Source: Chloroflexota bacterium
GTDB lineage: Bacteria > Vulcanimicrobiota > JAMCWD01
Direction of reading: 5' to 3'
DNA length: 64,000 nt
NCBI GenBank assembly: GCA_023475345.1
Contig: JAMCWD010000040.1
Span: forward strand, 22,137-86,136
The position numbers and the translations under genes were made by a program. This document shows, piece after piece, positions 57,414-58,535 of this stretch. How positions within the stretch are numbered: the first letter of the stretch is position 1; every line of letters starts with the position of its first letter. The notes beneath the pieces are model-generated. The model did not search any database, was not told where the DNA came from, and was given only the letters and a program-made list of their open reading frames with translations.

Positions 57414-58535
57414 ATGGAGGAGATTGTGCGTATTGATCCGATTAAAAGCGATAGCTTGATAATCCCGGCTCACGGCAAGGAAACCGCTCCCGGAAAATTT
57501 GCCGAACCGGCTTCACCTCCTGCCGCAGGAGACAGCGTTCACCTTTCCAAACAGCCCGGCAAATCACCTGAAACTTCGAAAGCCACCCAGCCCCCGAAGA
57601 AAGAAACCGCCCCTGTCCCGCTTAAAGCGAAACAAGCGGAAGTACAAACAGTTCCTACTTTTATCACCGAGATTTCGGAATCTAAAAGTGACAGCCCGAA
57701 AAGCAAATCCCCCCTTACTTTTGAAGTCATTAAAGCTAAAGAAAAGCCTTTCTCAGATATTAAAAAAGAATTGAAGAATTCGAAATCCGGGCGTTCTCGT
57801 GATGATTCCGGATATATCGCCAAACGTGATGAATTCTATAAGGATATTTTCGCCGATCCGGAACTGATGAACCGAAGCGAAACTTTGATCCATCAATGGG
57901 CTGAGGGCGGAAAAGGCTATAAAAACCTGGATGTCATCAAGGACGCTTATACCCGTGTGCTGCTGGAAGGGAAAAAACCTCAAACCGATACTGAAAAGAC
58001 CGTTTTTGACATGCTGGCCACCCGCCGGGAACGCTGGAACCGCCTGGCGGAGAAACTGGACATCAAGCCCCCGGACAGCTTTCATGTTTACCGGGGGGTC
58101 AAGGGCGAATATGCCGTTGATGCGGTGGTAAAAGCCTGGAGCGACGACTCCGGCAAATATATGAACATCCCCAATAAGGAGCTTTCCTCCTGGTCGCTGG
58201 ATCATGAAGTGGCGAAGGATTTTGCTTCCTCCGGCCCGAAGCCCAGCGTGGTCTATGAAACGGATATCCCCTTTTCCCGCACTTTGATGGACAAATATGT
58301 GGACGACAATCACTTCATCAAAGGTTATTATTCTGAAGAAGAAGTTGTAGTTGCGGCGTCTCCCGACAGCATCCGTGTTCCCAAGGAGCTTGCCACCGTT
58401 AAATTCGAGGACAAGATTTATACCTATGAGGAGCGGGCCGAACTCATCAAAGCATGGAACCAGAGACCTACCGGCTTTTTCCACAAAATTGCCCAGGCTA
58501 TTTCCTATAAATATCATGATGCTTTCGGCGGCTGA
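57414..58535 (+). CDS. Putative ADP-ribosyltransferase-like effector/toxin with FlgM-like leader and disordered Pro/Lys-rich region
   Basis: GTG 57426 lies 5 nt after GGAGGAG (the track opens at ATG 57414). Leader (M)RIDPIKSDS...GDSVHLSKQ. C-terminal HVYRG ... LSSWSL ... YSEEEVVV fits an R-S-E ART triad. No signal peptide. Confidence 0.75.
   Translation: MEEIVRIDPIKSDSLIIPAHGKETAPGKFAEPASPPAAGDSVHLSKQPGKSPETSKATQPPKKETAPVPLKAKQAEVQTVPTFITEISESKSDSPKSKSPLTFEVIKAKEKPFSDIKKELKNSKSGRSRDDSGYIAKRDEFYKDIFADPELMNRSETLIHQWAEGGKGYKNLDVIKDAYTRVLLEGKKPQTDTEKTVFDMLATRRERWNRLAEKLDIKPPDSFHVYRGVKGEYAVDAVVKAWSDDSGKYMNIPNKELSSWSLDHEVAKDFASSGPKPSVVYETDIPFSRTLMDKYVDDNHFIKGYYSEEEVVVAASPDSIRVPKELATVKFEDKIYTYEERAELIKAWNQRPTGFFHKIAQAISYKYHDAFGG

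Follow-up and report, generated by a model that had tools for sequence, protein, structure and literature searches.

What is the function of the protein encoded by the open reading frame (ORF) at 57414..58535 on the forward strand of a 64,000-nucleotide stretch of DNA from a Chloroflexota bacterium? This stretch, hereafter the window, comprises positions 22,137 to 86,136 of contig JAMCWD010000040.1 (GenBank assembly GCA_023475345.1). A preliminary description, made from the letters alone, had recognized in the C-terminal domain of the protein the arginine-serine-glutamate (R-S-E) triad of an ADP-ribosyltransferase (ART), and had proposed that this domain is delivered by an N-terminal leader of the FlgM type. 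What is observed here comprises the motifs and their conservation throughout the family, a predicted fold, the architectures in which the domain occurs, and the pairing with a small downstream gene. We consider it probable that the protein carries an R-S-E ART toxin domain of the polymorphic-toxin type and that the small gene encodes its cognate inhibitor; for this pair we infer activity, acceptor, toxicity, inhibition and export.

Start codon and catalytic motifs

The ORF of 373 amino acids (aa) counted from ATG 57414 is present as described previously. The true start of the gene, however, is probably GTG 57426, which gives a protein of 369 aa. This start is favored because the sequence GGAGG lies 5 nucleotides (nt) upstream, because all homologues begin with M-[RQK]-I, and because the identical NCBI protein, 'MAG: hypothetical protein M1269_09395 [Chloroflexi bacterium]', is 369 aa long (P0001; in the following, proteins carry P numbers and loci L numbers). 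Residue numbers follow ATG 57414 throughout; the GTG start shifts the numbering by -4.

The three motif strings, namely FHVYRGV at 58080-58100, KELSSWSLDHEVAKDF at 58176-58223 and YYSEEEVVVAASP at 58326-58364, were located exactly where the preliminary description had placed them. The assignments of Arg227, Glu308 and Glu310 hold, whereas those of the serines were off by one. That is, the serine stretch reads S258-S259-W260-S261, so that residue 260 is a tryptophan and the S-x-S element is S259-W260-S261, not S258-x-S260. The spacings, previously given as about 31 and about 48 residues, amount to 32 from R227 to S259 and 47 from S261 to E308.

The bare pattern R..SxS..ExE is found in 34% of shuffles of the same protein; when the local context is included, i.e., an aromatic residue before R-G and a hydrophobic residue after both SxS and ExE, the figure is 0.035%. 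A single sequence proves little; the evidence from the motifs rests on their conservation across the family.

Conservation of the motifs across the family

A word-indexed search identified five close homologues with 45-61% identity, all of which retain R227, S259-W-S261 and E308-E-E310. An exhaustive profile search of 1.84 billion representative proteins yielded 129 relatives, 52 of them with E < 1e-30, and the family spans at least 129 clusters at 50% identity. The region that the relatives have in common is the C-terminal ~215 residues. In a profile search with the 66-sequence alignment, the close subfamily and P0121 were among the matches listed.

Conservation was counted over 138 domain copies from 133 proteins, with the ungapped copies as the denominator at each position. 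The counts for the arginine, for S259 and for W260 are given in Table 1. The position before R227, which is Y226 in the window protein, is Tyr, Phe, His or Trp in 121 of 130 copies. Position 261 is Ser in 111 copies and Thr in 13 (either residue in 124 of 136). At position 308, Glu (79 copies) alternates with Gln (49 copies), and E310 is present in 130 of 131 copies. Position 305 is Phe, Tyr or Trp in 83 of 124 copies and His in another 11; thus, an aromatic residue stands at -3 of [EQ]xE in about two thirds of the copies. The arrangement phi-x-x-[EQ]-x-E is the form taken by the ADP-ribosylating turn-turn (ARTT) loop in ARTs of the cholera-toxin family (PMC8120803). At the level of sequence, the alternation of Glu and Gln together with an invariant second Glu is the pattern of known R-S-E ARTs.

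When only relatives of at least 450 aa are aligned (48 proteins), the invariant columns are R, the G of YRG, the S of SWS and the second Glu, and no others. The 133 family proteins are otherwise only ~16-36% identical per column, and yet the R, S and E positions are invariant. Conservation in homologues had been set beforehand as a check on the motifs, and the triad proves to be the most conserved feature of the family. Further near-invariant positions are specific to this family; these are T-R-x-x-R-W (R204, R207, W208), W242, P286, T290, D293 and D297.

Searches of nucleotide data added little to this set. When 50,697 phage records were searched by tblastn with the domain of the window protein, no match was obtained, and a profile search of genome contigs with the alignment of close homologues (A1) produced no relative. 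A degenerate DNA pattern for T-L-x-D-K-W-V-D-D matched 7 loci in genome contigs, one of which is a real member of the family (L020, from a Deinococcota metagenome-assembled genome, MAG). The source names in the 11 clusters that were checked (P0001 and ten relatives) are 'hypothetical protein' or refer to a different portion of the sequence (for example, SPP1 gp7 head morphogenesis, ankyrin repeat); there is no ART annotation among them.

Predicted fold

Residues 130-373 were modeled with AlphaFold2 using 66 sequences; the numbering of the model is the ATG numbering minus 129. The model has a predicted local distance difference test score (pLDDT) of 92.1 and a predicted template modeling score (pTM) of 0.87. 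The full-length protein, modeled with 6 sequences, has a pLDDT of 52, and its leader is modeled with a pLDDT below 50. In model numbering, five helices are followed by a strand at 93-101 that includes R227, a helix, a strand at 128-132 that ends in S-W-S, and a helix at 135-143; then come two strands, a loop, and a strand at 181-185 that starts at E310. We take this order of elements to be that of C3/VIP2-like ARTs.

When the model was compared with the PDB using Foldseek, almost all of the top 50 matches belonged to the ART superfamily. The best was the Vis toxin (4y1w; E = 0.012, probability 0.80, template modeling (TM) score 0.31-0.34), and others were PARP12/14/15, cholera toxin, KptA/Tpt1, IcmQ, iota Ia and SpvB. 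Among the predicted viral structures of BFVD there were 12 matches at E <= 1e-3, several of which are fusions with head-morphogenesis or minor-capsid proteins; BFVD proteins named 'ADP ribosyltransferase' matched with E = 5e-3 to 3e-2. The evidence for the fold is consistent and points in one direction, with each match individually weak.

Relation to curated ART families

The preliminary description had likened the domain to PF03496, i.e., to the C3/VIP2/iota-type ARTs. This assignment fails, in that neither PF03496 nor PF01129 matched the window protein (E <= 10) or any of the 114 relatives that were scanned, namely the 48 long ones, the 65 other members of the 66-sequence family alignment (A3), and P0001. 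The window protein gave only two chance-level matches in Pfam (E >= 0.1), one chance-level match in PHROGs (E = 0.053), and none in NCBIfam, PADLOC or the PDB sequences.

The sole curated family reached by sequence is DRAT (PF07357), which was matched by 4 of the 66 members of A3, the best with E = 3.4e-4, and which is the only family matched by more than two of them. In the relative P0131, residues 421-506 score 39.1 bits on Pfam DRAT (cut-off 25), and the family profile matches residues 431-502, including LYRGV and LSSWT; that is, both matches fall on the same stretch. A tblastn search with the DRAT-like segment of P0131 returned one Bacillus phage as well as plasmid genes of Streptomyces and Rhodococcus whose annotation is NUDIX hydrolase or hypothetical. 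DraT itself belongs to the R-S-E ARTs and is specific for arginine (PMC8120803). PF07357 has no match in the window protein. As judged from these sequence comparisons, the family is a relative of DRAT that falls outside PF07357.

The preliminary reading of the C-terminal domain as an ART is therefore upheld, though by other evidence than a match to PF03496. Because the triad is conserved throughout the family, position 308 alternates between Glu and Gln, an aromatic residue stands at -3 as in ARTT loops, the elements follow one another as expected in a model of pLDDT 92, and ARTs dominate the Foldseek list, we conclude that this domain is very probably an ADP-ribosyltransferase of the R-S-E clade.

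A small gene downstream of the ART gene

An ORF for a 63-aa acidic protein begins 93 nt past the stop codon of the ART gene (Table 1). Of 11 independent loci, 10 have a homologue of this small ORF directly downstream of the ART gene. Besides the window, these are the loci of P0002, P0003, P0004, P0006, P0121, P0051, P0009, P0019 and P0123. They include a locus in which the ART domain is 27% identical to that of the window protein (P0121), a phage MuF fusion (P0051), two forms of more than 1000 aa (P0009 and P0019), and a protein from a Deinococcota MAG (P0123). At the P0006 locus, seen in three samples (L005-L007), the partner overlaps the ART gene by 4 nt; at the P0004 locus it is known from the gene call only (63 aa, 46 nt downstream). 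The partners have in common a core, F.VP.G....G[SA]F.[EA]DDP..H, which follows an N-terminal helix. Searches of Pfam, PADLOC and PHROGs with the 63-aa protein produced no match.

In the loci compared, the ART-partner pair has no other conserved neighbors, and none of the 11 loci has an ADP-ribosylhydrolase gene beside the pair. Because of its position, its size and its inheritance together with the ART gene, we read the partner as an immunity protein or antitoxin, i.e., probably the cognate inhibitor of the ART domain. The arginine of the partner's TPRFG was considered as a pseudo-substrate; this idea was dropped, as the arginine is not kept in L005, L008 and L011.

At the two P0121 loci, the gene after the ART-partner pair (L008, 1527-2459; L010, 1646-2578) has a weak match to TIR_2, another NAD+-consuming domain typical of defense systems.

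Domain architectures of the relatives

In nearly all relatives, no more than a few residues follow the ART domain before the protein ends, and what precedes the domain varies. Of the 48 long relatives, 14 have an N-terminal Phage_Mu_F domain that is clearly set apart from the C-terminal domain; four have an N-terminal NUDIX domain, three have ankyrin repeats, and one has a phage portal protein. Some short members, e.g., P0020, P0028, P0030 and P0042, were seen by eye to have lipoprotein-type or other signal peptides. Relatives on actinobacterial plasmids lie inside genes annotated as NUDIX hydrolase. The family is thus found in phage heads, in plasmid-borne NUDIX fusions and in chromosomal islets.

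The MuF fusion P0051 is encoded in a phage head module (L011, 1-7776), which consists of the genes for portal, MuF-ART, a 69-aa partner ORF, a 130-aa ORF, a 557-aa NUDIX/Pa193_gp24 protein, cement and major capsid. In phage heads, ART and NUDIX (ADP-ribose-processing) functions travel together, and P0119 is a direct fusion of portal and ART. Three very long proteins (P0129, P0131 and P0133; 1520-1797 aa) have two to four tandem ART-like copies, some without the ExE part. P0009 and P0019 (L015, L016) contain, in their N-terminal half, long hydrophobic repeats rich in Gly and Ala at residues ~170-400, without a Pfam match, which may form a membrane-inserting or translocation region.

A C-terminal cargo domain that occurs on many delivery modules is a polymorphic toxin domain (PMC3482391). 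Here, one C-terminal domain is combined with MuF, portal, ankyrin, NUDIX, lipoprotein, Lys/Ser/Pro-rich and >1000-aa N-termini.

The N-terminal leader

The first 126 residues of the window protein are 42% Lys, Ser and Pro and have an isoelectric point (pI) of 9.6, in agreement with the low-complexity Pro/Lys/Ser-rich N-terminus described previously. The reported lack of a signal peptide is likewise borne out; there is no transmembrane segment either (maximum Kyte-Doolittle mean over 15 residues, 0.39), and the protein contains no known trafficking domain. The close subfamily, P0001-P0006, has in common a leader of ~120 aa with the elements M-x-I-x-P, GD-x-V-x-LS, VPTFI and IKAKEKPF. In the window leader, the second of these reads GDSVHLS and is encoded at 57528-57548.

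The likeness to FlgM that had been claimed for this leader comes down to this one 7-residue motif. Pfam FlgM (PF04316) matches none of 10 leaders, from the window protein and nine relatives, even at E = 10. An hhalign comparison of the leader alignment with E. coli FlgM gave a probability of 0.7% over 12 columns, with GDSVHLS placed on STSVTLS. The 'new effector architecture' that had been proposed, namely an ART behind a FlgM-type leader, thus finds no positive evidence. The architecture that does appear to be backed is a variable N-terminus, a C-terminal ART toxin and a small downstream partner, i.e., the known layout of polymorphic toxins.

A motif of the form [DE]x[VLI]x[LVI][ST] occurs within residues 31-57 in 15 of 120 complete N-termini of the family, compared with 3.9 expected, and in four architectures. 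Carriers of the D-x-V-x-L-S type are found among short, ankyrin-fused and >1000-aa members; one member of the ankyrin cluster is from a Bacteroidota MAG. This motif may be a real functional element, without a tie to flagellar export. In P0133, a match to FlgE/F/G D1 was considered as flagellar support and was rejected, since it is short and below threshold (23.2 bits versus a cut-off of 27).

Promoter, composition and neighboring genes

The promoter of the ART gene had been described as near-consensus. Its -10 hexamer, TATAAT (57383-57388), is indeed perfect and is extended by TGn at 57380-57382; the -35 hexamer, however, has just 3 of its 6 positions in common with TTGACA, and a consensus promoter scan did not report the site. 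The sequence is sigma-70-like, not sigma-28-like.

The gene had also been placed in an AT-richer block bracketed by repeats. The repeats do bracket a block of 4.1 kb (57146-61268), which contains two orphan genes in addition to the ART gene and its partner; there is a 61-nt direct repeat (57146-57206 and 61208-61268, 82% identity) and a 39-nt inverted repeat (57239-57294 and 60994-61047). The ART gene itself is of average composition, with a GC content of 48.9% compared with 49.6% for the window. The AT-rich part begins at ~59.0 kb, downstream of the ART gene, and three AT-rich orphan genes lie between the ART pair and rpsB (GC contents in Table 1). Hairpins of the GC-rich form CCxGCGAAGGCxGG are found at 57179, 60931, 61108 and 61241; the rest of the 64 kb is essentially free of them. 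The hairpin-rich repeats might mark where a mobile cassette begins and ends, or might be local elements like repetitive extragenic palindromes. Within the 460-aa minus-strand ORF there is, in addition, a 33-nt inverted repeat (61579-61611 and 61844-61876), 94% complementary, with arms 232 nt apart.

Table 1. Features of the ART locus in window coordinates; residues are numbered from ATG 57414
Feature	Position	Strand	Remarks
Left copy of hairpin-rich repeat	57146..57295		Brackets 4.1-kb block
Putative promoter	57361..57388	+	-35-like TTGCAG 57361-57366, 16-nt spacer, extended -10 TGTTATAAT 57380-57388
Shine-Dalgarno sequence GGAGG	57416..57420	+	From sequence; 5-nt spacer before GTG 57426
ART-domain coding sequence	57426..58535	+	369 aa (GTG 57426) or 373 aa (ATG 57414); stop codon included
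Leader, ~125 aa	57426..57800	+	Basic, K/S/P-rich, predicted disordered; pLDDT <50
Five-helix subdomain, residues 130-215	57801..58058	+	Model helices 2-86; holds near-invariant T-R-x-x-R-W
Predicted ART-fold catalytic core, residues 216-350	58059..58463	+	AlphaFold2 pLDDT 92.1, Foldseek, BFVD
Arg227-Gly228 of FHVYRGV, 'R' of R-S-E	58092..58097	+	R 130/130, G 115/130; strand beta1 of model
Ser259-Trp260-Ser261, STS-type	58188..58196	+	S 129/136, W 129/136; strand end, then helix
ARTT-like Y305-Y-S-E308-E-E310	58326..58343	+	Presumed catalytic Glu310; E/Q position 308; aromatic at -3
63-aa acidic partner ORF (pI 4.3)	58629..58820	+	N-terminal helix, motif F.VPPGTPRFGAFAEDDPETH; candidate immunity protein or antitoxin
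Orphan gene	59002..59949	+	GC 37%; N-terminal transmembrane helix, sub-threshold DUF3881 match
Orphan gene	60072..60731	+	GC 45%; only chance-level PADLOC CARF match
Right cluster of the same repeats	60877..61268		Direct and inverted copies
Orphan gene, 460 aa	61318..62700	-	GC 32%; only chance-level PADLOC CARF match

From 40 kb to its end, the window has chromosomal genes of an ordinary kind, for an FAD-linked oxidase, an iron-sulfur CCG protein, a racemase, PSP1, DNA polymerase III delta', an aldehyde dehydrogenase, a nucleoside phosphorylase, a regulator of the cyclic nucleotide/sigma-54 type, and ribosomal protein S2. The regulator (54550-57066, minus strand; 838 aa) combines a cyclic-nucleotide-binding domain with a sigma-54-interaction AAA+ domain and its lid, and ends in a polytopic membrane region with Fer4_5 motifs. 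No DNA-binding helix-turn-helix was detected in this protein, which is membrane-embedded, an unusual arrangement for a sigma-54 activator. The product of 49760-50593 (minus strand) matches Phenol_MetA_deg with 26.8 bits (cut-off 22). We assume this to be a family of outer-membrane beta-barrels. It fits poorly with the MAG label Chloroflexi, and so the taxonomic label or the type of cell envelope may deserve a check.

Discussion

If the protein is a toxin of the kind proposed here, it would consist of three parts, namely a leader of ~125 aa that is basic and disordered, a subdomain of five helices, and, at the C-terminus, the R-S-E ART domain. By analogy with the chemistry of R-S-E ARTs (PMC8120803), Arg227 and Ser259-Trp-Ser261 would hold NAD+, and Glu310 would activate the N-glycosidic bond between nicotinamide and ribose for cleavage. 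Glu308 and the ARTT-like loop, with its aromatic Y305, would select the acceptor, which is most likely a protein arginine because the motif is ExE and not QxE. ADP-ribose would then be passed to a target macromolecule, with hydrolysis of NAD+ as a side reaction or an alternative one, and the target cell would be poisoned. In the producer cell, the 63-aa acidic protein most likely binds and blocks the ART domain. Domain and partner would together form a mobile cassette, carried on phage-head proteins, lipoprotein signal peptides, ankyrin repeats, NUDIX domains and very long proteins.

Several systems known from experiment have this logic. MuF-ART toxins with small, binding immunity proteins have been described (Bxa/Bsi, PMC11699363; MuF toxins, PMC5576092; Tox-ART-RSE, PMC3482391); Bsi, for example, is a small protein that binds the active site of Bxa, a MuF-ART toxin from a Bacteroides stercoris prophage (PMC11699363). 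The window family resembles the MuF toxins (Bxa/Bsi/BAH, EFV) in its C-terminal cargo of R-S-E-type ART, which is a likeness of architecture. In the MuF toxins, the variable N-terminus is dispensable for toxicity, and the product of a small adjacent gene (Bsi) inhibits the toxin by occupying its active site. The MuF fusions among the long relatives of the window protein, one of which has the partner within a head-gene module, extend this likeness. Unlike these toxins, however, the window protein has no MuF domain and does not lie in a prophage, and a gene for a BAH/DraG-like hydrolase is absent beside the pair in the 11 loci.

Tox-ART-RSE (PMC3482391) and Tre1/Tri1 of type VI secretion (T6SS) have the same layout, with a variable trafficking N-terminus, a C-terminal R-S-E ART and an immunity gene downstream. 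The reported distribution of Tox-ART-RSE includes Chloroflexi (PMC3482391). These toxins use a signal for the type II secretion system, PAAR or Rhs of the T6SS, WXG or LXG of the type VII secretion system, or MuF, none of which is matched by the window leader. Their immunity proteins are mostly ADP-ribosylglycohydrolases or larger binders, unlike the 63-aa partner, whose G[SA]F.EDDP motif is without detected similarity to the described immunity families. C3, VIP2, iota, Vis and SpvB, as well as Alt, ModA and ModB of phage T4, also have a helical N-terminal subdomain before the ART core. These enzymes are further alike in the aromatic residue before Arg, in S-x-S followed by a helix, and in the phi-x-x-[EQ]-x-E of the ARTT loop; the window family differs from them in having S-W-S rather than S-T-S, together with the additional invariant TRxxRW, D293 and D297. 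With respect to DraT, the window locus has neither a DraG partner nor a nif context; DraT is a regulator restricted to diazotrophs, whereas the window family has MuF, portal, lipoprotein and polyvalent, i.e., toxin-like, architectures.

A number of observations speak against the interpretation as a polymorphic ART toxin. No ART model of Pfam or NCBIfam matches the window protein. Profile searches of the PDB sequences with A1 and A3 yielded only a PARP-1 BRCT fragment and haloacid dehalogenases, at the chance level of E ~0.4. Alignment of A3 by hhalign with the T4 enzymes gave non-significant probabilities of 9% for ModA, 3% for ModB and 0.3% for Alt, although these alignments do place YRGV on WRGV of ModA and YRS of Alt, and EVIV on EMEVIL of Alt. 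In the Foldseek comparison with the PDB, no match reached E <= 1e-3 (E >= 0.012, TM 0.2-0.34). The distance from R to S is 32 residues, compared with 37-54 in tabulated ARTs (PMC8120803), and the proposal that R, S and E line one cleft is drawn from the order of secondary-structure elements in the model, not from distances. As to the partner, its putative role is deduced from position and co-occurrence, and it is absent at one of the 11 loci, that of P0013 (L012). As to export, a search with the leader alignment found no relatives outside its own small subfamily, and the searched 40-64 kb of the window contain no gene for flagella, secretion or a phage.

The chief competing explanation is a toxin-antitoxin or abortive-infection module that works inside the cell. 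In this view the ART never leaves its producer, and the 63-aa protein serves as a labile antitoxin; when it is lost, e.g., upon phage infection or stress, the ART would be freed to shut down the cell through ADP-ribosylation of host or phage macromolecules. This alternative, which we consider unlikely but worth serious attention, would account for the lack of a signal peptide or transmembrane segment and for the absence of secretion, flagellar and phage genes just mentioned. It would also suit a compact two-gene module that is kept without other fixed neighbors, the location of the pair in a small, repeat-bounded islet of AT-rich orphan genes, and the weak TIR_2 gene beside the pair in L008 and L010. 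ART toxin-first toxin-antitoxin systems are, moreover, known, namely DarTG, and DraT/DraG is viewed as a domesticated one (PMC8120803). However, the fusions with MuF and portal proteins, which are packaged in virions, and the lipoprotein signal peptides of relatives point to delivery out of the producer cell. The window proteins are without a PADLOC match other than at chance level, the partner lacks the DNA-binding domain typical of type II antitoxins, and the 125-aa leader would be left without a role. It is rather improbable that the ART fold serves another chemistry, i.e., that the enzyme is mainly an NAD(P)+ glycohydrolase, which would deplete NAD+, or that it ADP-ribosylates nucleic acids (DNA, rRNA, tRNA or mRNA). 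Toxins of this fold with such activities are reported from polymorphic toxin systems, namely Tne5, Rhs ARTs (23S rRNA, tRNA) and CmdT (mRNA); the family has extra invariant residues outside the triad (TRxxRW, W260, D293, D297), and NUDIX domains are common as fusions and neighbors. Against this, the combination of ExE with an ARTT-like aromatic residue goes with protein (arginine) acceptors (PMC8120803), and the closest curated family, DRAT, modifies arginine.

Export of the ART through the flagellar type III apparatus, by means of a FlgM-type leader, is very unlikely. The leader begins with M-R-I-D-P and has GDSVHLS at residues 35-41 in GTG numbering, where E. coli FlgM has M-S-I-D and STSVTLS at 38-44; the more general form of this motif is enriched in the N-termini of the family, and the leader is disordered, as flagellar export signals are. 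A likeness of this kind, i.e., a disordered N-terminus with M-x-I-D and D/S-x-V-x-L-S ~40 residues in, is nevertheless offset by the failure of the Pfam and hhalign comparisons, by the absence of flagellar genes in the searched part of the window, by a promoter that is not sigma-28-like, and by the lack of the sigma-28-binding C-terminal half of FlgM in the window protein. In addition, the ankyrin subfamily that bears the motif includes a protein from the Bacteroidota, a phylum that is not known to have flagella. The least weight goes to the view that the protein is not such an enzyme at all, so that the motifs are a coincidence or the domain is an inactive structural or binding part of phage-head proteins. 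The frequency of the bare pattern among shuffles, the lack of a significant match to a solved ART or to PF03496/PF01129, and the best BFVD matches, which are structural-protein fusions without a stated function, could be read in this way. However, R, S and E are precisely the positions that are invariant across 133 divergent proteins, the E/Q alternation is typical of active ARTs, the ART superfamily dominates the Foldseek list, P0131 provides a bridge to DRAT, and an inert domain would not need a dedicated small partner gene.

Returning to the polymorphic-toxin interpretation, a bolder version of it, which we regard as quite unlikely, is that M-x-I-x-P...[DE]-x-[VL]-x-L-S constitutes an unrecognized export or docking signal, either flagellar-type or otherwise independent of a signal peptide, and that the partners are a new family of very small ART inhibitors. 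If true, this would define a new trafficking class of polymorphic toxins along with a new G[SA]F.EDDP..H inhibitor family.

R-S-E ART toxins are major weapons in conflicts among bacteria, phages and hosts, and their targets often reveal essential machinery. The family described here has no Pfam or NCBIfam model and is missed by current annotation. If the partner is an inhibitor, its ~60 aa would place it among the smallest ART immunity proteins and make it a useful tool. As a new, unannotated ART family with a partner, it would extend a known theme rather than open a new one.

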